From assembly GCA_947589385.1 (NCBI GenBank), contig CANPZW010000003.1:50878-114877 (forward strand): a DNA stretch of 64,000 nucleotides. The letters are read 5' to 3'. The stretch comes from an uncultured Clostridia bacterium. GTDB lineage: Bacteria > Bacillota > Clostridia > Christensenellales > Borkfalkiaceae. A model generated the notes under the pieces. The model made no database searches, was not told where the DNA came from, and saw only the letters and a program-made list of their open reading frames with translations. The first letter of the stretch is position 1. Every line of letters begins with the position of its first letter. Of the stretch, positions 7,078 through 59,982 are shown piece after piece. A program made the translations under genes and the position numbers.

Positions 7078-7143
7078 GATTTTTGTAAAAATTTTCAATT
7101 CGGTATTGAAATTATATCCATAATATGGTAAAATATAATAGAT

Positions 7144-9000: not shown

Positions 9001-9016
9001 ATGGGGGAATACCGCA

Positions 9017-10219
9017 ATGCTAAGAAAAAAGGAATGTGTCGCAATGCTGCTTGCCGGCGGACAGGGGTCAAGGCTGTACGCATTAACAAGCAATATTGCC
9101 AAACCCGCTGTGTCTTTCGGGTCAAAATACAGGATTATAGACTTTCCGCTGTCCAACTGCATAAATTCGGGCATAGATACGGTGGGCGTTCTCACGCAAT
9201 ATCAGCCTCTCGTTCTCAATGAGTACGTCGGCAACGGACAGCCCTGGGACCTTGACAGGACTTTCGGCGGCGTTCATATTCTTTCGCCCTACGAAGCCAA
9301 GACTGATACTTCGTGGTATAAGGGCACGGCTAACGCCATTTATCAGAATATACGGTTCATAAAGATGTACGACCCCGAATACGTACTGATTCTGTCGGGC
9401 GACCACATCTATAAAATGGACTACAATAAAATGCTCAACGCGCACAAGGCGGCAAAGGCGGACTGCACTATCGCGTGTATGCAAGTTCCCATAAAAGAGG
9501 CTTCGAGGTTCGGCATATTAAATACCAACGCCGACGGTTCGATTTACGAATTTGAAGAAAAGCCCAAAAAACCGAAGAGCGACCTCGCCTCCATGGGTAT
9601 ATATATTTTCACGGCTGAAAAGCTGTTCAAGTACCTTGAAGAGGACGACAAAGACCCTTCTTCCGAAAAGGACTTCGGAAAAAATATTCTGCCGAAGATG
9701 CTTGCAGCGGGCGAAAGAATGTTTTCGTACCGCTTCGAGGGCTATTGGAAGGACGTAGGAACGATTACATCGCTGTGGGAAGCGAATATGGATTTGCTCG
9801 GAGTTGTGCCCAACTTCGAACTTACGGACAGGGAAAACGTTATACATTCACGTAGCCCTCTCGCGCCGCCTGCATATGTGGAGGGGGAAGTTATAAATTC
9901 CATAGTCGCTACGGGTTGTGAGGTAGAAGGCAAAGTTTCCAATTCCGTAATAGGAACAAACTGCACTATCGAAAAGGGCGCGGAAGTCAACGACAGCGTG
10001 CTTATGGGCAACATTACGGTGAAATCGGGCGCGAAAATCAATTATTCGATTATAGACGAGGACGTAACCATATGCGAAAAAGCCGTAATCGGCGCGGCAA
10101 GGGAAGATGCGGAAAAGATTGAAAGCAAGACGTCGGGCATAACCGTACTCGGCAGGGGCATATCTGTCGGCAAAGGCGCAAAAGTGCCCGCAGGCGAAAT
10201 AGTGGATAGAAACGTATAG
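9017..10219 (+). CDS. glgC: Glucose-1-phosphate adenylyltransferase, catalytic subunit
   Basis: N-terminus is [11 protein letters not shown]; also [14 protein letters not shown] and a C-terminal left-handed beta-helix. SD is GGGGGAA. Confidence 0.95.
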
Positions 10220-10227
10220 GGGGTTAA

Positions 10228-11337
10228 GTGATGGTTTCCACAGTAGGCGTTATTTTTTCAAGTATAAACGAAGAAGACATCCCCGAGCTGACCAAAGTCC
10301 GCTCGACGGGTTCTATTCCTTTCGGCGGAAGATACCGTCTTGTTGATTTTGCGCTTTCGAATATGGTCAACTCGGGTATAACTACCGTCGGAATGATAAC
10401 CAAAAACAACTACCAGTCGCTTATGGACCATCTCGGTTCGGGCAAATATTGGGACCTTGCGAGAAAGGAGGGAGGTTTGATTTTACTTCCCCCGTACAGC
10501 GGCGAAACCGAAACTCTGTATAAGAACCGCCTCGAAGCGTTGAAAGGGGCGACTTCGTTCATAAAAAAAGCCAACGAGGATTTCGTCATTCTCGCAGACA
10601 GCGACGCCGTTTATAAACTCGATTACAGCAAAGTAATAGAGGCGCACATAAAAAACAACGCGGATATTACCCTTGTTTATCACGAGCACGAAATCGAACG
10701 GTCACATTATTATATTGTTCTCGAAACAGATAAAAACGACAAAATAACAGACGTACAGATTAACCCTACTGCTGGCGGCGTACAAAAGCACTATATGAAC
10801 GTAATGGTAGCGCGTACTTCTTTCCTTTTAAGGACGATACAGAACGCTTTCCAGCATGGCTATACAAGCTTCGGCAGGGACATTTTAAGTCCGGGAGTTA
10901 AAATGTACAATCTGTATGCTTATAAATTCGACGGTTATTATGCCAACATAAATTCCCTGAAAGCCTATTTCAACGCAAATATGGATTTGCTGAAAAAGGA
11001 AGTCCGCCACGAAATTTACGGCGACAGGTCGATTTATACGAAGGTCAACGACAGCGCGCCTGCCAAATTTGCCGATACCGCGGTCGTCAAAAACTCACTA
11101 GTGTCGGACGGCTGTATTATCGAGGGCACGGTTGAAAACTGCGTCCTTTTCCGCGGCGTCAAAATAGGCAAGGGCGCCGTCGTTAAAAATTGCGTGCTTA
11201 TGACAGACAATATCGTAGGCGAAAACTGCAATCTTTCATACGTAGTCAGCGACAAAAATTCCGTAATACGTGACAACAGGGTGCTTGCGGGATGCGAAAT
11301 CCAGCCTTATTTCATAAATAAAGGCTCGCTGATTTAA
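10228..11337 (+). CDS. glgD: Glucose-1-phosphate adenylyltransferase, GlgD regulatory subunit
   Basis: GlgC paralogue lacking the GGxGxRL loop (FGGRYRLVDFALSN). It sits in the glgC-glgD-glgA position as in Bacillus. ATG at 10231 is the more likely start. Confidence 0.85.
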   Translation: MMVSTVGVIFSSINEEDIPELTKVRSTGSIPFGGRYRLVDFALSNMVNSGITTVGMITKNNYQSLMDHLGSGKYWDLARKEGGLILLPPYSGETETLYKNRLEALKGATSFIKKANEDFVILADSDAVYKLDYSKVIEAHIKNNADITLVYHEHEIERSHYYIVLETDKNDKITDVQINPTAGGVQKHYMNVMVARTSFLLRTIQNAFQHGYTSFGRDILSPGVKMYNLYAYKFDGYYANINSLKAYFNANMDLLKKEVRHEIYGDRSIYTKVNDSAPAKFADTAVVKNSLVSDGCIIEGTVENCVLFRGVKIGKGAVVKNCVLMTDNIVGENCNLSYVVSDKNSVIRDNRVLAGCEIQPYFINKGSLI

Positions 11338-11358
11338 GAAAATTATCGGAGGAAGTTT

Positions 11359-12813
11359 ATGGCTTCAAAACAAGCTGCTTCGGCAATCAAGCCCGCGGAC
11401 AGAAAGAAAATCCTGTTCGTGGCGTCGGAATCAACGCCTTTTATCGCGACAGGCGGACTTGCCGAAGTCATAGGTTCTCTTTCAAAAACCCTCGCCGCGA
11501 CAGACAGATATGACGTAAGGGTGGTGATACCCCTGTATTCGGACATAAAAGCCGAGTATAGGGAGCATTTCAATTACCTCGGAAATCTCTATGTGCATCT
11601 CGCCTGGCGCAACCAGTATTGCGGCGTATTCGAATATGTGCAAGAGGGCGTAACGTTCTACTTTATCGACAACGAATTTTACTTCAAACGCCCCGGCTGC
11701 TATGGATATTTCGACGACGGCGAAAGATTTGCTTTCTTCTGCAAAAGCGTACTCGAAATAATGCCTTTCCTTAATTTTTATCCCGACGTCATGCACTGTC
11801 ACGACTGGCAGGCGGCGCTTGCGGCTATTTATTTAAAGACAAACTACTGTTTTAAACCCGAATATCAGTATATAAGGGCGCTTTTCACGATTCACAACAT
11901 AGAGTACCAGGGGCGATATTCGCTTGATTTACTCAACGATTTATTTGATATTTTCGGCGGTTACCGCAATATTGTAGAATACAATAACTGTATCAATCTG
12001 ATGAAAGGCGCCATAGAATGTTGCGAAAGGTTTTCTACGGTCAGTCCGAGATACGCGGAAGAAATCAAAAACGAATATTACGCTCACGGGCTCGACAGTA
12101 TCATAAGGAATAACGAGTTTAAGCTGACGGGAATTTTAAACGGCATAGACGAAAGCTACAATCCCAAAACCGATACGCATATTTTCGCGAATTTCTCGGC
12201 GGACGATTTTTCAAACAAAGCAATATGCAAGCGTGAATTACAGAAGATGCTGAATTTGCCCGAAAAACCGCGTACGCCCATTATTTCAATGGTATCGAGA
12301 CTTGTTTCCCATAAGGGATTGGACTTGGTTACGGCGGTTATAGAGGAACTGTTGCAGGACGACGTCCAGATTGTCGTTTTGGGCACGGGCGATTCGCACT
12401 TCGAAGGCTTCTTCCGGGATTTGGCTAACAGATATCCCGATAAATTCAGCGCGAACATTGTATTCAGCGGTGACTTGTCAAGAAAAATTTATTCCGGCTC
12501 GGATATTTTCCTTATGCCGTCAAAATCCGAACCGTGCGGACTGTCGCAAATGATAGCCTGCCGCTACGGAACAATACCCGTAGTCAGGGAAACGGGCGGT
12601 CTTTACGACAGCATCAAACCGTGCCAAAACGGCTATACTTTTGCAAACTACAACGCGCACGATATGCTGTATGTTATACGCGAGGCGTGTGCGGATTATC
12701 AAAACAAGGGAACTTGGGAAAAACTTATGTATAGGGCGGCAACAACCGATTTCAGTTGGATGCGTTCAGCAAAAGATTACGAAAATCTCTACTTAAATAT
12801 GCTTAAAAACTAA
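11359..12813 (+). CDS. glgA: Glycogen synthase (ADP-glucose type)
   Basis: ILFVASESTPFIATGGLAEV N-terminus, i.e. the KTGGL-type motif. Also PSKSEPCGLSQM. Confidence 0.95.
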   Translation: MASKQAASAIKPADRKKILFVASESTPFIATGGLAEVIGSLSKTLAATDRYDVRVVIPLYSDIKAEYREHFNYLGNLYVHLAWRNQYCGVFEYVQEGVTFYFIDNEFYFKRPGCYGYFDDGERFAFFCKSVLEIMPFLNFYPDVMHCHDWQAALAAIYLKTNYCFKPEYQYIRALFTIHNIEYQGRYSLDLLNDLFDIFGGYRNIVEYNNCINLMKGAIECCERFSTVSPRYAEEIKNEYYAHGLDSIIRNNEFKLTGILNGIDESYNPKTDTHIFANFSADDFSNKAICKRELQKMLNLPEKPRTPIISMVSRLVSHKGLDLVTAVIEELLQDDVQIVVLGTGDSHFEGFFRDLANRYPDKFSANIVFSGDLSRKIYSGSDIFLMPSKSEPCGLSQMIACRYGTIPVVRETGGLYDSIKPCQNGYTFANYNAHDMLYVIREACADYQNKGTWEKLMYRAATTDFSWMRSAKDYENLYLNMLKN

Positions 12814-12834
12814 ACTATAAACCGGAGAAAATAA

Positions 12835-15282
12835 ATGAGTAGCAGTTCAATTAACGAAAAAGAAGTCAAGGAACAGATAAACGGCAAGCTTGCAAGGTAT
12901 TTCGGCGTTTCGCCTTCCGAAGCTTCGAGAGACCAGATTTATAAATCTGTCGTTATGGTGGTAAGGGATATCTTGCTGCAAAAACGTCAGGAATTTCATA
13001 ATAAAGTCAAAGCTAAGCGCGCCAAAAGGGTTTATTACCTATGTATGGAATTTCTTCTCGGCCGCTCGCTTAAAAACAGTCTGTATAATCTGAATTTGGT
13101 TACCGTTTTTGAAAAGGCGGTATCTTCGTACGGACTTAAAATCGAAGATTTATACGAATCGGAACCTGACGCCGGACTCGGAAACGGTGGTTTGGGCAGG
13201 TTGGCGGCTTGTTATCTTGATGCGCTTGCAACGGGCAATTATCCCGCAATGGGATTTTCTCTCAGATACGAGTTTGGCTTATTCAAACAAAAAATAGTTG
13301 ACGGCTGGCAAATAGAACTGCCGGACGTTTGGCTTCCGGGCGGAGAAGTATGGCTTACCCAAAGGACGGACAAAAATTTCATAGTACGCTTTAACGGGCA
13401 GGTGAACGAACACTGGACCGAAAGCGGGCTGCAAACAAGCTATGTCAACTGCACCGAAATCCAAGCGGTGGCGTACGACTTAATGGTATCGGGCAAAAAC
13501 AGCGAAGCGGTGTCTGTTTTAAGGCTTTGGAAAGCGAAGGCGACGCAGGACTTCAACATGAAGCTGTTCTCGCAGGGGCAATACTACCAGGCGCTTACCA
13601 ACGATACGGACGCAGACCTTCTGACCAAAGTTCTATATCCTTCGGACAACCACAGCGCGGGTAAATCCCTGCGGCTCAAACAGCAGTATTTCCTGTGCTC
13701 GGCGTCGATTCAGAACATAGTGGAGGACCATAAGCACAGATACGGCGATTTGCGCGATTTGCCTAAATTCGCGGCAATCCATTTGAACGATACGCATCCC
13801 GCAATGGCAATCCCCGAGCTTATGAGGATTCTTATCGATGAATATTATTACGATTGGAACCAAGCTTGGGCGATTACGACTGCGACCTGCGCATATACAA
13901 ACCATACGGTGCTTGCGGAAGCGCTGGAAACCTGGAACCAGGATTTGGTGGAGAGAACGATTCCGAGAATCCATACGATTATAAAGGAAATCAACAGAAG
14001 GCTCTGCGAGGAGTTATGGACGAGATTTCCCGGCGAGTGGGCTAAAATTTCGCGTATGTCGATAATCGAGCACGACCGCATAAAGATGGCAAATTTAGCC
14101 GTATATGGCAGTCACAGCGTAAACGGAGTTTCAAAGCTACACAGCGAAATTATAAAGACGTCCATTTTTAAGGATTTTAACGACTTTACGCCGGAAAAAT
14201 TCAAAAACGTCACAAACGGCATTGCGCACAGGCGTTGGCTTAATCAATCCAACCCCGAGCTTGCAGGGCTTTTGAACGAATGTATTGGCGATTCTTATAT
14301 TCTGGACGCCGCAGCGCTTTCAGGATTTAAGAAATTCGAAAACGATAAATCTGTTCTGAACCGTCTTGAAGAAATAAAGCTTCTTAAAAAGAAACAATTT
14401 GCCGAATATGCAAAAAAGAAACAAGGCATAATCATAAATCCCGAAACTTTATTCGACGTGCAGGCAAAGCGCCTTCATGAGTACAAACGGCAGCTTCTCA
14501 ACGTTTTGAATATAATCGACGCATACCTCGATTTCCAGGATAATCCCGATATGAACGTTCTCCCGAAAACCTATATTTTCGGCGCTAAGGCGGCGGCGGG
14601 CTACGATATGGCTAAGAAAATTATCCAGCTAATCAATTATCTCGCCGAAGAAATCAAACAAAATCCCAAAATCAATGAAAAGCTGAATGTAGTCTATATG
14701 GAAGATTATAACGTCACCATGGCAGAAAAGCTGATGCCGGCGTCTGAGATTTCCGAACAAATTTCTCTTGCTGGCAAGGAAGCAAGCGGCACGGGCAATA
14801 TGAAGTTTATGATAAACGGAGCATTGACGATAGGCACGCTTGACGGGGCGAATGTTGAGATTGCCGAAGCGGTCGGTGAAGAAAATATCTTCATTTTCGG
14901 TTTAAAATCAAACGAAGTTGACGAAATTTGGCGCAACGGTTACAGTTCAAGCAAGTTCTATAACGAATCTCCCAAATTAAGAAGAATTATCGAGGCGTTG
15001 ATTATAGGCTTCAACGGAATGTCCTTTGCGGAAATCGCGAATTATCTTTTGACGGGTTCACCTGTCGCCGACCCGTATATGTGTATGGCTGATTTCGCGG
15101 CTTACACAAATAAACAGCACGAAATTTCCGAAATCTACCTGAAAGATAAATTCAGATGGAATCAAATGTCGCTCAGAAATATTGCCTCCGCAGGTTACTT
15201 TTCGGCAGACAGAAGTATAAGAGAATACGCGGAAAATATATGGAATCTTAAAAGCGTAGTCCAAAGAAACGAAAACAAATAA
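12835..15282 (+). CDS. glgP: Glycogen/maltodextrin phosphorylase
   Basis: GT35 family. Has the PLP-lysine motif EASGTGNMKFMINGA. Length is 815 aa. Confidence 0.95.
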   Translation: MSSSSINEKEVKEQINGKLARYFGVSPSEASRDQIYKSVVMVVRDILLQKRQEFHNKVKAKRAKRVYYLCMEFLLGRSLKNSLYNLNLVTVFEKAVSSYGLKIEDLYESEPDAGLGNGGLGRLAACYLDALATGNYPAMGFSLRYEFGLFKQKIVDGWQIELPDVWLPGGEVWLTQRTDKNFIVRFNGQVNEHWTESGLQTSYVNCTEIQAVAYDLMVSGKNSEAVSVLRLWKAKATQDFNMKLFSQGQYYQALTNDTDADLLTKVLYPSDNHSAGKSLRLKQQYFLCSASIQNIVEDHKHRYGDLRDLPKFAAIHLNDTHPAMAIPELMRILIDEYYYDWNQAWAITTATCAYTNHTVLAEALETWNQDLVERTIPRIHTIIKEINRRLCEELWTRFPGEWAKISRMSIIEHDRIKMANLAVYGSHSVNGVSKLHSEIIKTSIFKDFNDFTPEKFKNVTNGIAHRRWLNQSNPELAGLLNECIGDSYILDAAALSGFKKFENDKSVLNRLEEIKLLKKKQFAEYAKKKQGIIINPETLFDVQAKRLHEYKRQLLNVLNIIDAYLDFQDNPDMNVLPKTYIFGAKAAAGYDMAKKIIQLINYLAEEIKQNPKINEKLNVVYMEDYNVTMAEKLMPASEISEQISLAGKEASGTGNMKFMINGALTIGTLDGANVEIAEAVGEENIFIFGLKSNEVDEIWRNGYSSSKFYNESPKLRRIIEALIIGFNGMSFAEIANYLLTGSPVADPYMCMADFAAYTNKQHEISEIYLKDKFRWNQMSLRNIASAGYFSADRSIREYAENIWNLKSVVQRNENK

Positions 15283-15309
15283 AACATTTTAAAAGAACGT
15301 CGAGATTTA

Positions 15310-15343
15310 CGCAAAAACAAGGCAATTTTGCCTTGTTTTTGCG
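15310..15343 (+). terminator. Intrinsic terminator of the glg operon
   Basis: 16-bp stem CGCAAAAACAAGGCAA-tt-TTGCCTTGTTTTTGCG with a T-rich 3' side. Confidence 0.8.
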
Positions 15344-15395
15344 TATTATGTCAGACATAATACGTAGATTTTAATGTTTTATAGTTAAAATCTAC
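15342..15395. repeat. Two further back-to-back palindromes after the glg terminator
   Basis: CGTATTATGTC-a-GACATAATACG (15342-15364) and GTAGATTTTAA-n10-TTAAAATCTAC (15364-15395). Confidence 0.8.
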
Positions 15396-15648
15396 GGCTT
15401 GCGATATAAAAAGGCGACTGCAAAAACCTTAAAATTGTAAAATGACCTCTTAATACAAAAAATAACCGTTGCAGTTTATTAAAGTTTGTAATTTTGGCGT
15501 TTTTTCGGACTGTCAAAAATTACATTAAGAAATATTTTGAATGTAGATTTGATTTATTTCTAAAAACCTAATAGATAATTTACAGGTTATTTAAATATTT
15601 TAAGAAACGACCTAACAATTAAAAGCTTTAAAATTGCTAAAAAATAGC

Positions 15649-15694
15649 CCAACACTTCGTAAAAGCTGTGTTTTACGAAGTGTTGGATTTTTTT
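15649..15694 (+). terminator. Orphan strong terminator inside the AT-rich ORF-less island
   Basis: CCAACACTTCGTAAAA-gctgtg-TTTTACGAAGTGTTGG followed by ATTTTTTT. No annotated gene lies upstream of it. Confidence 0.7.
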
Positions 15695-15969
15695 AACCCA
15701 CCGCCATTAAACATTATTGGATGCATAAAAAGAAAACGACACGTAACATTTTACGCCTTCCATAGTGTAATTTTTATTTTAGTCCAACATTCTTTACTTT
15801 AACGGGAACTTATGTAGGTGGTATTTTTAAAATTATGTTTGTTGGGAAATGTTGCAGCAATTACTTCTTTTCGGTACTTAATCAAAACTAGTAATATTTA
15901 AATTGCTTAAAACCCTTGAAGCTAAAATGGATATTAAAAAAACGTTTGGGTATTACCCTTATTCTGCTG

Positions 15970-15998
15970 TTGACTAAAAAAAAATAATGATTTATAAT
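15970..15998 (+). promoter_or_regulatory. Consensus sigma-A promoter (TTGACT-N17-TATAAT) abutting the recombinase start codon
   Basis: The -10 ends 7 nt before ATG 16006 (4 nt before GTG 16003) and there is no SD. This implies a leaderless mRNA. Confidence 0.6.
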
Positions 15999-16002
15999 TT
16001 AT

Positions 16003-17058
16003 GTGATGAGTGCAAATTATTACGTTGACAGGAACAATAAAAATCTTGAAACAATCGAACGGCTTTTGGACGAATCTCTCCCACCGTTTTGCGGCGATTA
16101 TTTTCTTGCGATTGACAGTCAGACTTCTACCCTCACGCGGTTGAATTACGCCCATGATTTGAAGATTTTTTTCTATTTTTTGCAGGAAAAAAAGTTCAGA
16201 AAATCAAAATTCGTAAAAGATTTTACCCTCGACGACATGGAAACCGTAACAAGCACAGACATCGAGTATTTTTTAAGCTATCTGTCGCACTACGTTTACG
16301 ACGGCAAGGAACATTCCTGCAACGACCGTGCAAAGGCGCGTAAGCTGTCTTCGGTCCGCGCCTTGTTCAAATTTTTATTCAACAAAGGCTATATTTCGGT
16401 TGATAATTCCGCAAAGGTTTCAACGCCTAAACTTCATGAGAAGCCGATAATTCGCCTTGACGGCGATGAAGTGTTCGGCATAATCGACGTGGCGGAAAGC
16501 GGCTGCGGGCTTACCACCCACCAAAAAGCTTACCATGAAAAAACACGCGTGCGCGACAGCGCCATTCTGACATTGTTTTTGGGAACGGGAATACGTATAA
16601 GCGAGCTTGTCGGGCTTAACAATGAGGATATAAATTTTAAGGATAATTCCTTTATCGTTACCCGCAAGGGCGGCGGAAAATCCATACTTTATTTTGACGA
16701 CGTAGTTGCGGAAGCCCTTAAACGCTATATGGAATATAAAGAAAACAACGCCGAAAATCTTTCTGAAACTACGGCGCTGTTCGTATCCAACAATAAAAAG
16801 AGAATCACTGTGCGCGCGGTAGAAAATCTTGTGCAGAAATACGCTAAAATCGTATCCCCACTCAAAAAAATTTCCCCGCATAAATTACGTTCAACCTACG
16901 GCACGCAACTTTATAAAGCGACTGGCGATATCTACATAGTCGCCGACGTGCTGGGGCACAAGGACGTAAACACCACCCGCAAGCATTACGCCGCAATCTC
17001 AGACGACAACCGGCGCGGCGTGGTCGGAAAAGTAAAATTGAAGCGCGACGACGATTGA
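16003..17058 (+). CDS. Tyrosine site-specific recombinase, XerS/XerC-like
   Basis: C-terminal catalytic residues (..ISPHKLRSTYGTQLY.., LGHKDVNTTRKHY), TRKGGGK, and an N-terminal SAM-like domain. At 351 aa, its length and motif layout resemble single-recombinase XerS. Confidence 0.85.
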   Translation: MMSANYYVDRNNKNLETIERLLDESLPPFCGDYFLAIDSQTSTLTRLNYAHDLKIFFYFLQEKKFRKSKFVKDFTLDDMETVTSTDIEYFLSYLSHYVYDGKEHSCNDRAKARKLSSVRALFKFLFNKGYISVDNSAKVSTPKLHEKPIIRLDGDEVFGIIDVAESGCGLTTHQKAYHEKTRVRDSAILTLFLGTGIRISELVGLNNEDINFKDNSFIVTRKGGGKSILYFDDVVAEALKRYMEYKENNAENLSETTALFVSNNKKRITVRAVENLVQKYAKIVSPLKKISPHKLRSTYGTQLYKATGDIYIVADVLGHKDVNTTRKHYAAISDDNRRGVVGKVKLKRDDD

Positions 17059-17062
17059 ATGT

Positions 17063-17245
17063 TTAATTCTTGTCTTGGTCGATTATTATCTTATCTATCT
17101 TAATCACTGCGTCGTCGCGTATATCAAGACACTTTCCGCAGTTATCGCATATCTTGTTTGGGTCAAGGTCGCAGATTTCACATTCCATGCACCCTATACA
17201 TTTTCTGTCGTAAAGCACGCAGTCTTTCTCACCAAATTCTTTCAT
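17063..17245 (-). CDS. Small (60 aa) 8-cysteine protein, function unknown
   Basis: Cys pattern C-x6-CxxCxxCxxC-x7-CxxCxxC. Divergent from lexA. No SD; a TATAAT ends 6 nt before the ATG, so it may be leaderless. Confidence 0.45.
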   Translation of the reverse strand: MKEFGEKDCVLYDRKCIGCMECEICDLDPNKICDNCGKCLDIRDDAVIKIDKIIIDQDKN

Positions 17246-17291
17246 AATAATATTATATCACTTTTTTCAAAAATTTCAATGTAAATTTTAT

Positions 17292-17329
17292 GAACAGATG
17301 TTTGATTTTTATTTAAACATATGTTACAA
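17292..17329. promoter_or_regulatory. Two Cheo-type LexA boxes overlapping the lexA promoter
   Basis: GAACagatGTTT (17292-17303) and AAACatatGTTA (17315-17326) compared with the consensus GAAC-N4-GTTC. The promoter is TTGATT (17301)-N17-TACAAT (17324). Confidence 0.7.
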
Positions 17330-17358
17330 TAAAGTTACAGAAAAATTTGAGGAATTTT

Positions 17359-17946
17359 ATGAAAAGAATTGATAACGACGATAAAGTGTATCGATTTATC
17401 ACCGATTTTATAAATGCGCACGGCTACGCCCCCACCGTCCGCGAAATTTGTAAGGGTTGCGGAATAAAGTCCACAGCCACTCCCTATCAGATTATGAACA
17501 GGCTTGCCGAACGCGGTCTGATTAAAAAAACGGGCAACAGAAACCGCGCAGTTTCAATAGCTAACCAAGGACCAACCGTAAACGTTCCTCTTATAGGCAC
17601 GGTGGCTGCGGGCGAACCTATTTTCGCAAGCGAGAACTTTGAAGAGTTTTACTCTATCCCTGGAAACTTTTTCGAAGGCGAAGATTTATTTATGCTGAAC
17701 GTAAAAGGTACGTCGATGATAAATATCGGCATGCTGGACGGCGATAAAGTAATAGTAAAACGACAGGAAACCGCAAATAACGGCGATATTGTGGTTGCGC
17801 TTGTAGATGATTCCGCCACAGTCAAAAGGTTTTTTAAGCGGGGCGGAAAAATCGTTCTTCATCCTGAAAACGACGATATGGATGATTTTATATTCGATAA
17901 TGTACAAATTCTCGGTAAAGTCGTCGGCTTAATGAGAAACATTTAA
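17359..17946 (+). CDS. lexA: LexA repressor
   Basis: Winged-helix N-terminus (YAPTVREI), VPLIGTVAAGEPI cleavage region, and S24 motifs GTSM and GDIVVA..TVKR. ATG 17359 follows GAGGA; the track start 17347 is an upstream TTG. Confidence 0.93.
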   Translation: MKRIDNDDKVYRFITDFINAHGYAPTVREICKGCGIKSTATPYQIMNRLAERGLIKKTGNRNRAVSIANQGPTVNVPLIGTVAAGEPIFASENFEEFYSIPGNFFEGEDLFMLNVKGTSMINIGMLDGDKVIVKRQETANNGDIVVALVDDSATVKRFFKRGGKIVLHPENDDMDDFIFDNVQILGKVVGLMRNI

Positions 17947-18010
17947 GTTGTTTCTGTGCCGAAAACTACCGCTTTGGTTTACTTATACTACGGAAGGTTA
18001 GTTTTCAAAA

Positions 18011-26658: not shown

Positions 26659-27582
26659 TTATTTAAGTAAACTTTTCAGTTTTTTTATGTCCGAATTTGC
26701 GATTGCCTGTAAAATTTCCGTTTTTGCGCTTCGGCTTACGGGAGAAGATATTTTGCAATCGTATTCAAGGTTTTCAAGCTCCCCCAATTCTCCGTCGTAA
26801 AGTTTTGTTGTGCCCATCAAGCCAATTTTTTTAAGTTCCGCGCTTTCAGAAAGCAGATATTTAATAAAATTCTCCGCATAGTGCTGTTTTTCGGCGATTT
26901 TAGATGTTACCGAAATATTCTGATACAAATCGTTAAATTCGTTTACAGGCTTTATTTTAAAACTTACGCCACGGGTATTCAGTCTGAAAACGTCTCTTTG
27001 CGTGCCGAGAAGATATTTGTATTTACCTGCGATAAGACTGACATACGCCCCCGTAGGTTTTTCAACGGCTGCGCCCGAAACCCCGCATAATAACCCCGCC
27101 GCGGACGATAAATTATCAATTCCTCCGTTAATTACCGTGTTTTCCGCGTGTATATCGGTAAAATCCGCACTTTCGTCAACCGTCAAAAAACAATATCCGC
27201 CGTGCGCCCAAATAAAATACGGCGTCTTTCCGACTATCAAACTTTCAAGCCCGCTCATCCCCGCGCCGTATGAAATCAAATCGGGAACGTTGCCCGCCCC
27301 GATATTTTCAAGCGCCGCGGACGAGGACAGGGAAGTTACGTTGATATAACAACCGTTTTCTTTTGAAAAACTGTTGCCTATGTTTTGCAGATAACCTGCT
27401 CTCGACCCCTTGCCACCCTCGAATCCGTCTATCTGCCATACGGAAAGCACGATGAGCTTCTTCGAGTTTCCGACGTCTTTTGAATTTTTAAATATTATCA
27501 TAAGCGGCGCGCTTATCAGAATTGCCGCGCACAGCACAAAAAATATTGCTCTTACAATAATTTGGTTCTTTTTTCGGGGCAT
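26659..27582 (-). CDS. Membrane-anchored extracytoplasmic protein of unknown function (possibly solute-binding-protein-like fold)
   Basis: N-terminal basic stretch plus one TM helix (IIVRAIFFVLCAAILISAPLMIIF). No recognisable motif and no SD. Confidence 0.55.
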   Translation of the reverse strand: MPRKKNQIIVRAIFFVLCAAILISAPLMIIFKNSKDVGNSKKLIVLSVWQIDGFEGGKGSRAGYLQNIGNSFSKENGCYINVTSLSSSAALENIGAGNVPDLISYGAGMSGLESLIVGKTPYFIWAHGGYCFLTVDESADFTDIHAENTVINGGIDNLSSAAGLLCGVSGAAVEKPTGAYVSLIAGKYKYLLGTQRDVFRLNTRGVSFKIKPVNEFNDLYQNISVTSKIAEKQHYAENFIKYLLSESAELKKIGLMGTTKLYDGELGELENLEYDCKISSPVSRSAKTEILQAIANSDIKKLKSLLK

Positions 27583-33525: not shown

Positions 33526-35934
33526 ATGGCTTATACGACCTTCAACGAAGTTGAAAAAAAATGGAGCGGATATTGGGAAGAACATAAGACCTTCCATACC
33601 GACCTGCACGACTTTTCAAAACCCAAATATTACGTGCTTGATATGTTCCCCTATCCTTCGGGCGCGGGACTGCACGTAGGTCACCCCGAGGGCTACACGG
33701 CGACAGACATTCTTGCCAGAATGAAGAGAATGCAAGGCTTTAACGTGCTTCACCCGATAGGCTTTGACAGTTTCGGTCTGCCCGCCGAGCAGTACGCCAT
33801 AAGAACGGGCAGAAATCCCGACGGTTTCACTCAGGAAAACATTAAGACGTTTACCGCGCAGCTTAAAATGCTGGGGCTTTCATACGATTGGGACCAGACC
33901 ATTTCCACCTGCGACCCCTCATATTATAAATGGACGCAATGGATTTTCAAGCGTTTATACGAAGCGGGGCTTGCAAGATACGTGGAAACGCCCGTAAACT
34001 GGTGCGAGGAACTCGGCACGGTGCTTGCAAACGATGAAATCATCGACGGAAAAAGCGAGCGCGGCGGCTATCCCGTTGTCCGCAAAAATATGAAGCAATG
34101 GGTCATCGACATAAATAAGTATGCCGAAAGATTGTTGGAAGGGCTTGAAGAACTTGATTGGCCCGAAGCTTCGAAAGTCGCCCAAAGGAATTGGATTGGA
34201 AAGTCCGTCGGCGCGAACGTAGATTTCAAGGTTGACGGCACAGACAAAAAATTCACCGTTTTCACCACCCGTTGCGACACTCTTTTCGGCGCAACTTACT
34301 GCGTGCTTGCGCCCGAACACAAGCTTGTCGGGGAAATAACTACGCCCGATAAGCGCGCCGAAGTCGAGGCATATAAGAAGGTTTGCGCAAGCAAATCCGA
34401 CCTCGAACGCACCGAACTCAACAAGGAAAAAACGGGCGCTTTTACAGGCGCGTACGCCGTAAATCCCGTCAACGGCGCTAAAATCCCCATTTATATTTCA
34501 GACTACGTGCTTACCTCTTACGGAACGGGCGCGATTATGGCAGTCCCCGCGCACGACCAGCGCGACTATGAATTTGCAAAAAAATTCAATATTCCAATCA
34601 TTCAGGTACTCGACGGCGGCGACATATCAAAAGAAGCCTGGACGCAGGACGGACTTCATATAAATTCCGGCTTTTTGGACGGACTGAACAAGCAACAGGC
34701 AATAGACAAAATGGCAAAATGGCTGGAAGAACGCGGCTGCGGCAAAAAAACCGTGACATACAAGCTGCGCGAATGGATTTTCGCCCGCCAAAGGTATTGG
34801 GGCGAACCACTTCCCGTAATTCACCTTGAAAACGGTGAAATCGCGCTTTTGGACGACAGTCAGCTCCCCCTCGTCCTTCCGCCCATGACGGACTATAAGG
34901 CGCACGGCGGAAACGCTCCTCTTGAAAACGCAAAGGAATGGGTGAACGTAGAAGTCGGCGGAATCAAAGGCAAGCGCGAAACCACTACAATGCCGGGCTC
35001 TGCGGGTTCAAGCTGGTATTTCTTGCGCTACTGCGACCCCCATAACGATAAGGAATTTGCAAATTACGAACTTTTGAAACATTGGCTGCCCGTCGATTTC
35101 TATCTCGGCGGCAAGGAACACCTTGTCGGTCACCTTTTGTACTCGCGTTTCTTTATGAACTTTCTCTACGACAAGGGCTACGTTCCGTATAAAGAGCCGT
35201 TCAAAAAATTGTTCCACCAGGGAATGATTTTGGGCGAGGACGGCAACAAAATGTCCAAAAGTTGCGGCAACGTAATTAATCCCAACGATATCGTGCGCGA
35301 CTACGGCGCGGACGTTATGAGAATGTACGAAATGTTTATGGGTCCCGTTCAGGACACAAAGCCGTGGAACACCGCCAATATCGAGGGCGTAAAGAAATTC
35401 ATAGATAAAATTTACCGCATTTACTGCGAAAGCGATTCAATATCCCCCGCCCCCAACAAAAATCTCGAAAAAATCTATAACCAAACAGTCAAAAAAGTTA
35501 CGGAAGATTACGAGGCTATGAAAATCAACACGGCGATTTCGCAGATGATGATTTTCTTTAACGCTGTCGGCAAAGAGCTTTCCGAAGGCAGAAAAATGCC
35601 AAAAGATTACGCCGAAGGGCTTATAAAATTGCTCAATCCGATAATCCCCTTCCTTACCGAAGAAATCTGGAATACAGTTTTGGGGCACAACGGCACTATC
35701 GCATACGAAAGCTGGCCTGCGTTCGACCCCGCAAAATGCGGCGAGGACGACTTCGAATACGCCGTGCAGATAAACAGCAAAATCAAGGCGAAAATAGTAT
35801 TACCCGCCGATATGCCCGCCGCCGAAATAGAAAAAACGGTTAAAGCCCATGCGGACATTGCTCCCCTTATCGAAGGAAAACAAATCAAAAAATTCATTTT
35901 CGTTCCCAAACGGCTTATTAACATTATCATATAA
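33526..35934 (+). CDS. leuS: Leucyl-tRNA synthetase
   Basis: HVGHPEGY (HIGH) and KMSKS motifs. Length is 802 aa. Confidence 0.97.
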
Positions 35935-35955
35935 TATATAGATACATTATTATTT

Positions 35956-49690: not shown

Positions 49691-51793
49691 TTAATTTTTG
49701 TGTACGCCCGCAAGCGCTTGGAGCGCCTCCTTTAACTCCTGCGGGCTGTTCATTACCTCTACCGCCGATTTATGAAAATACTCGTCATAGTAGAAAACTT
49801 TGTTATCGGTATCAAAAAATTCATATGCAGACGGAAATTTATCCTCCCGCGATTCGGCTGAAAAAATCCCGCTATCCGGAAGGTCGGCGCAATTTTCAAA
49901 AAGACAATTCCAGATTTTGACAAATGAATTTTCAAGCCGTAACGGCGAAATCCGGCAATCGCTAAAAAGACAATTTTCCATGAACGTGGAAGTTTTTACG
50001 CTTAAACAAAGCGGACTTTCATAATTATCCGCGGCAAGAAACAAATCGTTGTAAAGGTGCAGATTGATATTCCCTTCCGCCGAACTTACGGAGTTTTTGT
50101 AAATATTATGGTGCGACGTGAAAAATTCGGGCGAGCCGACGGCATTTTCAATTTTTTCCGCAAGACGACATTCAAAGATGTTATACGAAAGAGTAACAAA
50201 ATCTGCATTTTGAAAATGCAAAGCATAATTCTTTTCTGTATTTCCGTCTGCTTCGCCCATAAATTCGTTGTTATGAACCCATATGCGGGAATTTTCTCCT
50301 AAAAACCCGCATGCCGCGCTTTTATACCCCGAAAAAGTTAAATTTCTTATTTCCAGACTGCTGCAATCTTTGAATTTTAAATTGCCGACGATTTCGGCGT
50401 TATCGCCTAAGCCCTCGATAGTAATATCGCTTGCACCCGCCAAAGTCAGGTTTTCAACCGCAATTCTGCCTGTTATCCTGACGATTAGCGGAACTCCGTT
50501 AAACTTTTCCGCAGCTCTGAAAATATTTTCTATACCTTTATATACGCTTTTATCGATTTCGAGCTGAACGGAATTTTTTGTTGGTTCGGAAACATAAATA
50601 ATTTTTGAATTTTCTTTCGGCGTTCCGTCGGCGGAATATGCGCCGAAGCCATTGACCTTGTAATTGTAGTGCGCATAACCCGAACGGTCGAAAGAAGTTA
50701 CCGAAATTTCCGAAACTCCGGCAGACTTACCGCGGGCGAAGACCCTGACGTCGTAATTGCCCGCCGCAATCCCCAAAATATCTATGCGCACAAAATCGCC
50801 GCATAAACGTAATAATTCTTTGTCGGCCGCTTTCCATTCCGAAAGACTATCCGCACGGCGGTATTCGGCAGAATATTCGGAAATATCCGAATTCGGCAGA
50901 GCCGCGACCTCTACGAAAGCTCCTTCTTCATAGCCTGCGGAACGAAGAATTTTCAAGGTATCTTCTTCCTTTTTCTCCCATTTCGCATAGAGATTTAAAT
51001 CGCCGGAAAAAGTTTCGCTGATTTCAAGCAGTGCGTTGCCGTAAAATTTCTCATTATCAAACCAGCCGCAAAAGACATATCCGTCATAGACGGGAACGGG
51101 CAATTTAAGCACTTCGCCTTTGACGTATTCTATGGGGAAATCTCCTGCGAAAGCTCCGCCGTTCAAATTGTAGTTGATTTTAAATCTTTCGGCTTCGTCG
51201 GGAATGGTTATCCATTTGGCGTAAAAAATTTTGTCGCCCGAAGAATCTTCTGTAATTTCCGTAACTCTTTCGCCGTTAAATTCAATATTATCGTACCACC
51301 CGCCGAAAATATATCCGAATTTATAGGGCTCGGGCAGAACAACCTTTTTCCCGGCGGCGTAGCTTTCGGGAACTTCGCCGTCGATAGAACCGCCGTAGAG
51401 TATAAGAATAATTTTAAATATTTCGGGGGTCTTAGGCTCGGAAGTATCCTTTTCTTCCCATTTTGCCCAAAAAAACTTATCGCAGTTCGCGTATTCCCCT
51501 TCGAGTATTATATACTTTGCCCCGTCGAAATCAGCATTGTCATACCAGCCCCCGAAATTATATCCCTCTCTTTCGGGAACGGGAAGTTCCACGCTTTCGC
51601 CGGCATAAAATTCTTTGGGAAACTCGCCTTGAAATGAGCCGCCGTTTAAGTAGAACGTTATACTGTATTTTGTCTGTTGCTGCGGTCCGCCTGCGCCGTT
51701 ATCCTTGTCGGGATTATAACACGCACTGCCGAAAATCAAAAATACCGCCGCAAAAGCCGCAAAAAATTTGAAAACCGAACTGCGGAACTTCAT
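49691..51793 (-). CDS. Lipoprotein with three Listeria-Bacteroides (InlB B-repeat/Flg_new-type) repeats and a C-terminal beta-helix-like region
   Basis: Lipobox is IFGSAC. Three copies of the ~70-aa unit (..Y.I.F.LNGG....P..Y..G..V.LP.P.R.GY.F.GW(Y/F)DN..F.G..). The C-terminal ~330 aa have repetitive N/G-turn beta-helix character. Confidence 0.75.
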   Translation of the reverse strand: MKFRSSVFKFFAAFAAVFLIFGSACYNPDKDNGAGGPQQQTKYSITFYLNGGSFQGEFPKEFYAGESVELPVPEREGYNFGGWYDNADFDGAKYIILEGEYANCDKFFWAKWEEKDTSEPKTPEIFKIILILYGGSIDGEVPESYAAGKKVVLPEPYKFGYIFGGWYDNIEFNGERVTEITEDSSGDKIFYAKWITIPDEAERFKINYNLNGGAFAGDFPIEYVKGEVLKLPVPVYDGYVFCGWFDNEKFYGNALLEISETFSGDLNLYAKWEKKEEDTLKILRSAGYEEGAFVEVAALPNSDISEYSAEYRRADSLSEWKAADKELLRLCGDFVRIDILGIAAGNYDVRVFARGKSAGVSEISVTSFDRSGYAHYNYKVNGFGAYSADGTPKENSKIIYVSEPTKNSVQLEIDKSVYKGIENIFRAAEKFNGVPLIVRITGRIAVENLTLAGASDITIEGLGDNAEIVGNLKFKDCSSLEIRNLTFSGYKSAACGFLGENSRIWVHNNEFMGEADGNTEKNYALHFQNADFVTLSYNIFECRLAEKIENAVGSPEFFTSHHNIYKNSVSSAEGNINLHLYNDLFLAADNYESPLCLSVKTSTFMENCLFSDCRISPLRLENSFVKIWNCLFENCADLPDSGIFSAESREDKFPSAYEFFDTDNKVFYYDEYFHKSAVEVMNSPQELKEALQALAGVHKN

Positions 51794-58154: not shown

Positions 58155-59315
58155 ATGACCTTTTGCGCGATAATTTGTGAATTTAATCCCTTCCATAACG
58201 GGCATAAATACCTGTTGGAACAGGCGAAAAAGCTTTCGGGCTGTGATTTTGTGCTTTGCATTATGAGCGGCAGTTTCACCCAGCGCGGCGAAATATGTAT
58301 AATGGACAAACATACGCGAGCGCGCCACGCCATAATGAACGGCGCAGATTGCGTAATCGAGCTGCCAGTCTCCTTTACGGTCGCGCCTGCCGAAATCTTC
58401 GCGAAAGGGGCTGTAAAAATTTTAAACGCCATACCGAATGTCGCCGCGCTTGCTTTCGGGTGCGAGGACGAAAATTCGGATTTTTTTGGCATTTCCAAAA
58501 AAATTATTTCGGAAAGCGCAGATTTCAAAAAAATTTTACGCCGTAATCTCGAAAGCGGACAAAGCTACATAAAAAGTTTTGCCGCGGCATTTACCGCTTG
58601 CGGCGGAAACGGCGAAGCCATTTCGAAACCCAACAATATTCTCGGCATAGAGTATTCCAAAGCTGCTATAAAATGCGGCGCGCGCTTTAAGATAATTCCT
58701 ATACGCAGGGTCGGAAGCGGCTTTAACGACGGCATGCTTAAAGAAAATTTTTCTTCCGCCGCCGCAATAAGGGAAGACCCTTTAAATCCCGACGTTAAAA
58801 ACAACGTTCCCGCCGCAGTCTGTGCGGACCTACGCGATTTTTCCGCAGAAAAGGCGCGTTTCGAAGAACTTATGCGCTTTAAACTGTTGTGCACCCCGCC
58901 AAAGACGCTGAAAAGAATTATCGGCTGTACCGAGGGGCTTGAAAATAATCTTAAAAGCCGCGTAGGACTGCCCTACGGCGAACTGATTTCCGCAGTGGGC
59001 GGCAAGCGGTATTCCTGTTCGCGTATAAAGCGGATACTTCTCGCCAATCTCCTCGACCTGTACGAGGATGAGTGCAAGGAATTTCTTAAATCCCCACTCT
59101 ATCTGAAACCGCTTGCCGTAAAAAAACAGAGGTCGGACGAAATTCTATCCGCCCTTTCCCAAGCGGAATTTCCGCTTTTGCTGAAAAAGAAAAATATCGG
59201 ATTATTAAAAGAAACCGCCGAAAAATGCCTTGAAAAAGACTTAAATGCGGGCAAAATCCGTGATTTTATTTTCAATTTACCCGTGCGTGACTTCGATTAT
59301 CCTAAATTTATCTGA
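58155..59315 (+). CDS. tmcAL: tRNA(Met) cytidine acetate ligase (YlbM/TmcAL family nucleotidyltransferase)
   Basis: IICEFNPFHNGHKYLL motif. Length is 386 aa. Confidence 0.85.
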   Translation: MTFCAIICEFNPFHNGHKYLLEQAKKLSGCDFVLCIMSGSFTQRGEICIMDKHTRARHAIMNGADCVIELPVSFTVAPAEIFAKGAVKILNAIPNVAALAFGCEDENSDFFGISKKIISESADFKKILRRNLESGQSYIKSFAAAFTACGGNGEAISKPNNILGIEYSKAAIKCGARFKIIPIRRVGSGFNDGMLKENFSSAAAIREDPLNPDVKNNVPAAVCADLRDFSAEKARFEELMRFKLLCTPPKTLKRIIGCTEGLENNLKSRVGLPYGELISAVGGKRYSCSRIKRILLANLLDLYEDECKEFLKSPLYLKPLAVKKQRSDEILSALSQAEFPLLLKKKNIGLLKETAEKCLEKDLNAGKIRDFIFNLPVRDFDYPKFI

Positions 59316-59352
59316 TTTTTCTAATCGTATCTCAACTATCTGTCGCTTTCTC

Positions 59353-59381
59353 AAACAAAAAGACGCCCCTTTGAAGGGGCG
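59353..59381 (-). terminator. Intrinsic terminator of the Cys-rich repeat gene
   Basis: CGCCCC-ttcaaa-GGGGCG followed by TCTTTTTGTTTG on the minus strand, ~20 nt after the stop at 59401. Confidence 0.75.
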
Positions 59382-59400
59382 CCCGTAATTAAGGCTTTAA

Positions 59401-59889
59401 TCAAAAATTGCAGCCGCAGGAGTTGCAGGAATTGCAGGAATTACATCCGCAACCCGAACGGTTATTACCGCAAGAATTGCATCCGCAGCCCGAACGGTTA
59501 TTACCGCAGGAATTGCATCCGCAGCCCGAGCGGTTATTGCCGCAGGAACTGCAACCCCAGAAATTCCCGTTCCAGAAAACGGTATTGCCGTTGTTCGCAA
59601 TATTCGCGCTTGCAGGGCTGACACCGTTGTTATTGCCGCAACCGCAGCCGCAGGAATTGCAGGAATTGCAAGAATTACAGGAATTACAGGAATTGCAACC
59701 GCAATTACTTGTCAAAGCATATTGAGCGGCATAATAAGCGTCATAGCAACCGCAGTTATTGTTGTTTCCGCAGCGGTTGCACGCATTTCCGCAAGAACAA
59801 CCGTTGCCACAGCAGCAGGAAGAACGACCCGATAACAGATTTAAAAGCCCGGGCCAGTTGTTGTTACAATTATTACACATATTGTACAT
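59401..59889 (-). CDS. Cys/Asn/Gly/Ser-rich tandem-repeat protein (162 aa, ~50 Cys), no recognisable family
   Basis: It is the longest of three overlapping repeat-frame ORFs and the only one with its own downstream terminator and upstream AAAGGA. Repeats are (CNS)x5, (CNS)x3 and (CGNNRSGCGCNS)x3. No signal peptide. Confidence 0.6.
   Translation of the reverse strand: MYNMCNNCNNNWPGLLNLLSGRSSCCCGNGCSCGNACNRCGNNNNCGCYDAYYAAQYALTSNCGCNSCNSCNSCNSCNSCGCGCGNNNGVSPASANIANNGNTVFWNGNFWGCSSCGNNRSGCGCNSCGNNRSGCGCNSCGNNRSGCGCNSCNSCNSCGCNF
59437..59544. repeat. 3 x 36-bp tandem repeat inside the Cys-rich gene
   Basis: Units at 59437-59472, 59473-59508 and 59509-59544 differ at only a few positions. Confidence 0.9.
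59651..59695. repeat. 5 x 9-bp tandem repeat (CAGGAATTG-type) inside the Cys-rich gene
   Basis: Read directly. A further 3 x 9-bp block is at 59417-59443. Confidence 0.9.
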
Positions 59890-59948
59890 CGTTCCTTTAT
59901 CGTAAGTTTCAGCAAGGGTTTTCCCCCTTGCTTATATATTCATAATAT

Positions 59949-59982
59949 GAAACCGCGACCGAAAAGTTTCGGTCGCGGTTTC
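59949..59982. terminator. Terminator after rubrerythrin (16-bp-arm palindrome)
   Basis: GAAACCGCGACCGAAA-ag-TTTCGGTCGCGGTTTC. Confidence 0.75.

Follow-up and report, generated by a model that had tools for sequence, protein, structure and literature searches.

Spore surfaces are built of lineage-specific, fast-evolving, Cys-rich low-complexity proteins. Among those described, the closest parallel to the gene considered in this study is cdeM (CD1581) of C. difficile, whose product is a Cys-rich protein of 161 amino acids (aa) with NGNNGGNNNNC and CNCCNCCRK repeats, without domains and unique to its species (PMC6101409). The cdeM gene is monocistronic, is controlled by sigma-K and lies amid metabolic and housekeeping genes, and CdeM is an exosporium morphogenetic protein (PMC6101409); the expression of CD1581 in a sigK mutant was 0.01 of that in the wild type (PMC3789822). 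CotY and CotZ of the B. subtilis crust, ExsY and CotY of the exosporium in the B. cereus group and CdeC of C. difficile are also Cys-rich, made in the mother cell and devoid of signal peptides, and they self-assemble into disulfide-cross-linked layers at the spore surface (PMC6101409). The gene considered here lies on the minus strand (59401..59880) of a 64,000-nucleotide stretch of DNA from an uncultured Clostridia bacterium (contig CANPZW010000003.1, positions 50,878 to 114,877); this whole stretch is termed "the window" below. Its product belongs to a Cys/Asn-rich family for which the evidence tilts toward a role as a late mother-cell protein of the spore surface.

Coding sequence and protein family

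A first-pass annotation of the window had placed an open reading frame (ORF) for a 162-aa protein at 59401..59889 (minus strand). The ORF exists, and its translation matched the one given there, including (CNS)5, CGCGCG, (CGNNRSGCGCNS)3 and (CNS)2CGCNF. It is close to certain that the gene truly encodes a protein and that this protein belongs to a real family. The sense frame was free of stop codons in 20 of 20 homologs; the other five frames held totals of 38-254 stops. In the block encoding YDAYYAAQY, the non-consensus fractions were 0.088, 0.085 and 0.423 at codon positions 1, 2 and 3, respectively, making the third position ca. 5 times more variable. A plus-strand ORF of QPQEL repeats (59408-59725), which the first-pass annotation had raised as the frame that might be conserved instead, was rejected as a gene because stops interrupt it in homologs. 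Translation probably begins at the second ATG (59880), because MCNNCN is the conserved start in homologs, 10-12 nt after a conserved AAAGGA; the coding sequence (59401..59880, minus strand, stop codon included) then specifies 159 aa, rather than the 162 read from 59889. Gene callers also predicted the 159-aa product on four independent metagenome contigs.

The commonest residue of the window protein is Asn (25%), followed by Cys at 21% (34 of 162 residues, rather than the ca. 30% estimated previously), Gly (15%) and Ser (14%), and these four account for 76% of the chain. It contains 10 C-X-C and 13 C-X-X-C motifs, 10 Tyr, Phe or Trp residues, few Arg and no Lys. The highest 19-residue Kyte-Doolittle mean was 0.62; there is consequently no hydrophobic segment, in agreement with the earlier statement that signal peptides and transmembrane segments are lacking. 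Across 23 family members, Cys ranged from 16 to 26% and the top 19-residue hydropathy did not exceed 1.36, so that a high Cys content is combined throughout with the lack of a signal peptide or membrane anchor. Only 3 Lys occur among the 2903 residues of 23 non-redundant members, as compared to 8.5% in the other proteins of the window, and Arg is the sole common charged residue family-wide. This scarcity of Lys suggests selection, because the abundant Asn codons sit one transversion away from Lys codons; selection against trypsin-like cleavage in the gut is possibly one explanation.

The Cys-Xaa-Xaa-type repeats described in the first-pass annotation were recovered at the DNA level using Tandem Repeats Finder. 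A 36-bp unit repeated 3.5 times (59434..59560, minus strand; 90% matches, score 198) encodes (CGNNRSGCGCNS)3, and a 9-bp unit repeated 5.3 times (59650..59697, minus strand) encodes (CNS)5 and varies in copy number among strains; the same program detected a second 9-bp unit repeated 3 times (59416-59442). The species of the window has alleles of 159, 158 and 155 aa, which differ solely in the number of in-frame CNS and CG repeat copies.

Some 25 homologs of 74-177 aa were collected, all from uncultured gut Christensenellales-like Clostridia. Among 5.8 billion clustered proteins, 7 relatives were detected; scanning a single genome for each GTDB species gave 20 loci, all in metagenome-assembled genomes (MAGs) and none in a cultured isolate; and a metagenome scan added one further locus. 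A profile search of 1.84 billion representatives yielded only 14 true clusters, all of them this Cys/Asn-rich family. The host MAGs, all uncultured and from the gut of rabbit, mouse and others, are labeled Clostridia, Christensenellaceae, Christensenella or Borkfalkiaceae. No match to the window protein was obtained in Pfam or NCBIfam at E-values up to 10, nor in a PDB sequence search at E-values up to 10. The protein carries no name in any database examined, and literature searches for Cys/Asn-rich spore proteins returned nothing on this family. As judged from these sequence searches, the family is previously unannotated and restricted to one clade of uncultured gut Christensenellales-like Clostridia.

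Three non-repeat features are common to the family: an N-terminus reading MCN(N/S)CN, a hydrophobic GLLNLLFG and a central CGCYDAYYAAQY(A/G)L. Between these conserved motifs are CGC, CNSC and GNNRSG modules in variable number. In the window protein, the hydrophobic motif appears as (P)GLLNL (59836..59850, minus strand), with L12 and N14 invariant, and the central motif as GCYDAYYAAQYAL (59710..59748, minus strand), with D, Y, A, A, Q, Y and L invariant and with variation mostly at third codon positions. AlphaFold2, supplied with an 8-sequence alignment, returned a predicted local distance difference test (pLDDT) value of 28, which is unusable as a fold; its model placed a short helix at residues 13-16 within the GLLNL region (very low confidence) and another at residues 48-57 in the central motif (low confidence). 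The window protein is thus predicted to be largely disordered. Two members deviate from the common pattern. The one at L024:9968-10342 (loci are given L numbers where they must be told apart) has CGCSDNDDNWFNW in place of the otherwise universal YDAYYAAQY and keeps the promoter, hairpin and N-terminal motifs, and the member in L017 has the variant N-terminus MWFNCNSCN.

Promoter

Conservation was unusually strong over the 110 nt upstream of the family gene. This region contains a -10 element of the mother-cell sigma-factor type, CATATTAT (59942..59949, minus strand), in which C, A, T, A, T and the final T were invariant in a 20-sequence alignment; the box CATAT(A/T)AT was invariant across the family loci. 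A putative sigma-K-type -35 element, AC, is located 16 nt upstream of it (59966..59967, minus strand), within the rubrerythrin terminator (loop/3' arm). An AC preceded CATAT(A/T)AT by 16-18 nt in all but one of 21 loci (by 17 nt in 14 of them), and this spacing was kept even where the upstream DNA was unrelated (L013, L017, L018, L020, L022 and L025). The mapped sigma-K promoters of C. difficile feature AC at -35 and CATATAAT at -10; its sigma-E promoters have the same -10 box, but ATA at -35 (PMC3789822). Because the adjacent rubrerythrin genes in the same genomes have ordinary sigma-A-type promoters (TTGxxx-17-TGnTATAAT), the CATA/AC architecture is gene-specific and not genome-wide. The promoter of the family gene is therefore probably of the sporulation type, and from its elements we infer use by sigma-K and the corresponding timing of expression.

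When 455 kb of DNA from the clade were examined for other sigma-K-like promoters, nearly all of the matches belonged to this family's gene. The most divergent family member (P0016, L026:2040-2125) retains AC-17-CATAGGATA. At L010:18021-18583, a 169-aa ferritin-like/Mn-catalase-like protein of the CotJC type is preceded by AC-N-CATATCTT at a distance of 26 nt, and it may be another mother-cell-expressed gene of the clade. Two more AC-N17-CATAT(A/T)AT matches in the window are intergenic, and neither has an obvious downstream gene: that at 7119-7145 (minus strand) is between htpG and glgB and aimed at the htpG terminator, and that at 35910-35936 (plus strand) comes right after leuS. The sequence CATATWATR was observed 6 times in the window, against an expectation of 1.7.

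Transcript features

A conserved TA ca. 7 nt past the -10 box was taken as the transcription start. About 3 nt beyond it begins a 5'-proximal RNA hairpin (59911..59932, minus strand) with an 8-bp stem and a GGAAAA loop. In the alignment, 98% of cells were paired and 4 of the 8 pairs showed compensatory changes, a result reached in 0 of 500 shuffles. At one hairpin position G-U was the commonest pair, which points to an RNA of the sense strand. The folding energy of the hairpin region was -14.9 kcal/mol (z = -3.1). A search of the 5' region against Rfam gave no family match, only sub-threshold chance ones. A single copy of the motif is present in the window; in the loci it stands solely upstream of the family gene, no other genes sharing it. 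In P0016, a different inverted repeat is found (AAGGGAA/TTCCCTT, loop GGGAAA), whose stem follows the -10 box by 1-2 nt and may not be 5'-terminal in the transcript. Stem-loops at the 5' terminus protect Firmicute mRNAs from 5'-end-dependent decay, as in the aprE and ermC leaders and the cry3A STAB-SD. By analogy, the family hairpin would stabilize the mRNA.

The Shine-Dalgarno sequence, AAAGGAA (59892..59898, minus strand), is positioned 11 nt before the conserved ATG; its AAAGGA is conserved and is followed by a conserved TACAA-ATG context. An intrinsic terminator (59353..59384, minus strand) lies 16 nt past the stop codon and features a 10-bp stem with 7 GC pairs (59384-59361) and a T run extending to ca. 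59353. Both this terminator and that of rubrerythrin upstream (59949-59982), which the first-pass annotation had listed, were found. The family gene is considered monocistronic because a terminator directly follows it in every locus examined.

Sporulation genes in the host genomes

Sporulation genes were sought near the family gene by tblastn with sporulation proteins, followed by confirmation with NCBIfam models. In L017 (7319-10213), the family gene is directly downstream of a spoIIGA-sigE-sigG cluster, in which sigE scored 346 bits (cut-off 339), sigG scored 371.7 bits (cut-off 372) and spoIIGA was a weak match. In L025, Spo0A (245 bits, cut-off 200) is encoded 6.5 kb from the family gene. 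At least two family-carrying genomes therefore encode sporulation regulators and would have the sigma cascade of mother cell and forespore.

Gene neighborhood

The ancestral gene order was ychF< argS> HAD> rubrerythrin> FAMILY> brkB/yihY-like> <degV <ridA, with arrowheads denoting direction. Rubrerythrin is the immediate upstream neighbor in most loci and is not adjacent in L017, L018, L019, L025 and L026; in L007, L010 and L014 it is present and overlapped by a longer antisense ORF. A functional tie to rubrerythrin was rejected on account of its different promoter class, its own terminator and the loss of adjacency in several loci. The BrkB/YihY-like gene is downstream in nearly all loci; it is missing from the window, which has tmcAL (HIGH_NTase1) on the other strand. 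An operon with this membrane protein was also rejected, since a terminator intervenes in all loci and the window does without the gene. The linkage of the family to its neighbors appears to be a matter of synteny inherited within a housekeeping region, as described for cdeM.

Synteny breaks just past the family terminator (window 59250-59360, as compared with L006:4548-4700 and L001:3248-4400). The BrkB/YihY-like gene comes next in L006, a 98%-identical relative, and the sister contig L001 has an rve-type transposase at the same junction, which suggests a recent strain-level rearrangement at the window junction. The BrkB/YihY-like gene starts only ca. 20-30 nt after the family terminator in L003, L004, L008, L011, L012, L014, L016, L024 and L025. 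The 20-40 nt region before its start contains a conserved TTGCAAAAAATA(N4-5)ATG and no obvious Shine-Dalgarno sequence; its mRNA may begin with a very short leader or with none.

The first-pass annotation had reported no maturase gene nearby, and indeed no YcaO or radical-SAM family was represented among window ORFs of at least 120 aa, and the window yielded no FMN dehydrogenase either. Genes for a YcaO protein, a dehydrogenase, a peptidase or an ABC exporter were in no case conserved neighbors in the ca. 25 loci to which this survey was confined. The sole radical-SAM-like (CxxxCxxC) protein, in L016, is encoded 6 kb from the family gene and is not conserved.

Farther away in the window, a tyrosine recombinase gene of the phage integrase family (16003-17058) adjoins lexA (17347-17946) in the region 15300-17950 and follows the glycogen operon glgB, glgC, glgD, glgA, glgP (7144-15282); it may be the remnant of an integrated element. 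A 700-aa protein with Listeria-Bacteroides repeats (Flg_new) and a beta-helix region is encoded at 49691-51793 (minus strand) and is presumably a surface protein. An ORF of 307 aa at 26659-27582 (minus strand) had no Pfam match.

Discussion

We favor, with moderate confidence, the view that the family gene encodes a late mother-cell protein of the spore coat or exosporium that can be cross-linked by disulfides. This view is taken because a sigma-K-type promoter, a monocistronic and apparently stabilized mRNA, the lack of an export signal and predicted disorder come together with a Cys content of 16-26%, repeat-number polymorphism and a narrow lineage distribution. The gene would be transcribed alone from its sigma-K-type promoter, in the mother cell and late in sporulation, as an mRNA equipped with a 5'-proximal stabilizing stem-loop, a good ribosome-binding site and a strong terminator. 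The product would be deposited from the mother-cell cytoplasm onto the outer spore layers (coat, crust or exosporium). Its ca. 34 cysteines, in CGC and CNSC motifs, could form intermolecular disulfides once the spore has left the reducing cytoplasm, giving rise to an insoluble, keratin-like matrix in which the modules GLLNLLFG and YDAYYAAQYAL would serve for docking or self-assembly, with the variable repeats as cross-linkable filler. Both the spore location and the disulfide cross-linking are proposals. Of the resemblance to Cys-rich coat and exosporium proteins suggested in the first-pass annotation, the general type is thus favored (by the promoter, the monocistronic arrangement, the sporulation regulators in family genomes and the parallel to CdeM); kinship with CotY/ExsY or CdeC/CdeM was not found in the sequence searches.

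Several observations weigh against a spore-surface role. Sigma-A could use the -10 box too, given the perfect or near-perfect TATAAT within it; the -35 AC often falls in the terminator loop upstream, and loops like GAAAC may come back at such sites for unrelated reasons. The sigK gene was seen in none of the fetched sequences, which comprise a limited amount of DNA per genome, and neither the 64-kb window nor the flanking contigs of ca. 20 kb contained an unambiguous sporulation gene, only housekeeping genes. Every host organism is an uncultured MAG. Cultured Christensenellaceae are described as non-spore-forming (PMC11536998), and MAG surveys predict that most Christensenellales do not sporulate, with the exception of some Christensenellaceae (PMC12536801, PMC11536998). 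The searches detected no known coat protein related in sequence (Pfam and NCBIfam at E-values up to 10; profile search), and the C-X-C and C-X-X-C spacing is equally suited to metal binding.

In an alternative that we consider unlikely, sigma-A drives a vegetative gene for a cytoplasmic thiol, redox or metal buffer resembling metallothionein, perhaps acting with rubrerythrin; the likeness to sigma-K promoters would be coincidental and the CATATAAT box merely a strong TATAAT -10. Such a buffer would accord with the TATAAT or TATTAT within the conserved box, with the metallothionein-typical spacing of the 10 C-X-C and 13 C-X-X-C motifs, with the rubrerythrin gene immediately upstream in most loci, with the lack of unambiguous sporulation genes in the window and with the non-sporulating habit of cultured relatives (PMC11536998). 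A sigma-A promoter, however, would not call for the invariant CA before TAT(A/T)AT, and the family promoters have neither a TTG at -35 nor a TGn extension, though the rubrerythrin promoters of the same genomes have both; moreover, the AC is held at the sigma-K spacing even beside unrelated upstream DNA. Rubrerythrin, for its part, is set behind its own terminator and is not adjacent in the five loci enumerated above. The ca. 10 aromatic residues and the conserved Tyr-rich motif, predicted to be helical, are unlike metallothioneins, and no metallothionein family was matched even at E = 10. For these reasons, and given the sigma-A-type promoter of rubrerythrin, the metallothionein analogy that the first-pass annotation had tied to this neighbor was not sustained.

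A product of the late, sigma-K stage need not be structural, and it might instead be stored within the spore or on it as a sacrificial thiol or scavenger of oxidants, a metal sink or a reserve of N and S (as Asn and Cys) for germination. The promoter and regulator evidence for such a product is identical to that for a surface protein, its composition is extreme (25% Asn, 21% Cys), and several oxidant-detoxifying proteins are present in C. difficile spores (PMC3789822). No protease or germination gene was linked to the family in the loci examined, which argues against this role, as does the origin of the known storage proteins. These, the small acid-soluble spore proteins, are forespore products, driven by sigma-G promoters rather than sigma-K-type ones. 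The present data do not separate this role from a structural one, and the two could coexist; taken alone, we regard it as rather improbable. Least probable, to a degree that makes it quite doubtful, is a precursor of a ribosomally synthesized and post-translationally modified peptide (RiPP) or polymer whose maturases are encoded elsewhere, bearing either thiazoles and oxazoles, as in the thiazole/oxazole-modified microcins (TOMMs; heterocycloanthracin- or microcin-B17-like), or Cys-Asn thioethers (ranthipeptide-like). The Cys/Ser/Gly/Asn-rich repeats do resemble TOMM cores, and the repeat modules could represent multiple cores. Yet the maturation and export genes named above are not conserved neighbors, the one radical-SAM-like protein being confined to a single locus; a leader peptide is missing, with Cys and Asn from residue 2 onward and the conserved motifs internal; the NCBIfam precursor models were unmatched even at E = 10; and 100-180 aa is long for such precursors. 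The TOMM analogy of the first-pass annotation accordingly found no backing in the genes around the family or in the protein itself.

A bolder extension of the spore-surface interpretation, which we regard as a long shot, is that a clade of uncultured gut Christensenellales forms endospores whose outermost layer is mostly a Lys-free polymer of Asn, Cys, Gly and Ser, a chemistry new for spore coats. Such a layer could be held together by a dense disulfide, polysulfide or metal-thiolate network, or by heterocyclization or thioether cross-linking carried out by unlinked enzymes, and it would furnish a protease- and oxidant-resistant armor for transmission from host to host. Christensenellales are associated with health in the gut and are commonly considered not to sporulate, their cultured members being described as non-sporulating. 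If the spore-surface interpretation itself is right, it would bear on the passage of these bacteria between hosts and on their culturing, e.g. through ethanol selection of spores, and the promoter and gene together would constitute a compact late-sporulation sequence marker for an uncultured branch of the order. With 21% Cys, 25% Asn and no Lys, the window protein would be an extreme case of the Cys-rich low-complexity proteins at spore surfaces, and the conserved sigma-K-type promoter with its covarying 5' hairpin would offer a natural test set for the function of mother-cell promoters and mRNA stabilizers in Clostridia. Should the spore interpretation be wrong, a real, conserved and wholly unannotated family of unusual composition would still stand.

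Comparison with known systems

Metallothioneins (the fungal and plant types with CGC and C-X-X-C motifs) share with the window protein a high Cys content in C-X-C and C-X-X-C motifs and a Gly/Ser/Asn-rich, low-complexity sequence. The window protein differs from them in being two to three times longer, in its conserved aromatic-rich and hydrophobic motifs, in the sporulation-type promoter of its gene, in the lack of a metal-responsive regulator nearby and in having no match to the metallothionein families of Pfam. Precursors of the heterocycloanthracin/sonorensin and microcin B17 types likewise display runs of Cys-Xaa-Xaa and of Gly, Ser, Cys and Asn; in the window family, by contrast, there is no leader peptide, the repeats flank the conserved motifs on both sides and no cyclodehydratase or dehydrogenase is linked. 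SCIFF/ranthipeptides and sactipeptides differ in that no conserved radical-SAM/SPASM maturase adjoins the window family at its loci.

Among the spore-surface proteins, CotY/CotZ, ExsY and CdeC are folded, contain only 5-10% Cys and form defined families, whereas the window protein matches none of these and is predicted to be disordered. The likeness to CdeM goes further. The two proteins are of similar size (161 aa for CdeM and 159 aa here), neither has recognized domains, and both are made of short Asn/Gly/Cys-rich repeats; both are confined to a narrow lineage and encoded by monocistronic genes among housekeeping genes, with a sigma-K promoter in cdeM and a putative one here. They differ in Cys content (8.7% in CdeM vs. 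21%) and in the CHK and CRK repeats of CdeM, the window protein having no Lys; and the MCNNCN, GLLNLLFG and YDAYYAAQYAL motifs and the conserved 5' hairpin are found in the window family only. The localization and function of CdeM are proven, while those of the window family are proposed from such comparisons. Because no sequence homology to CdeM was detected (among 1.84 billion representatives, the profile search retrieved the window family alone), the family is regarded as an analog of CdeM and not as a member of its family. The family most likely represents a new variant, without homology to the others, among the Cys-rich proteins of spore surfaces.

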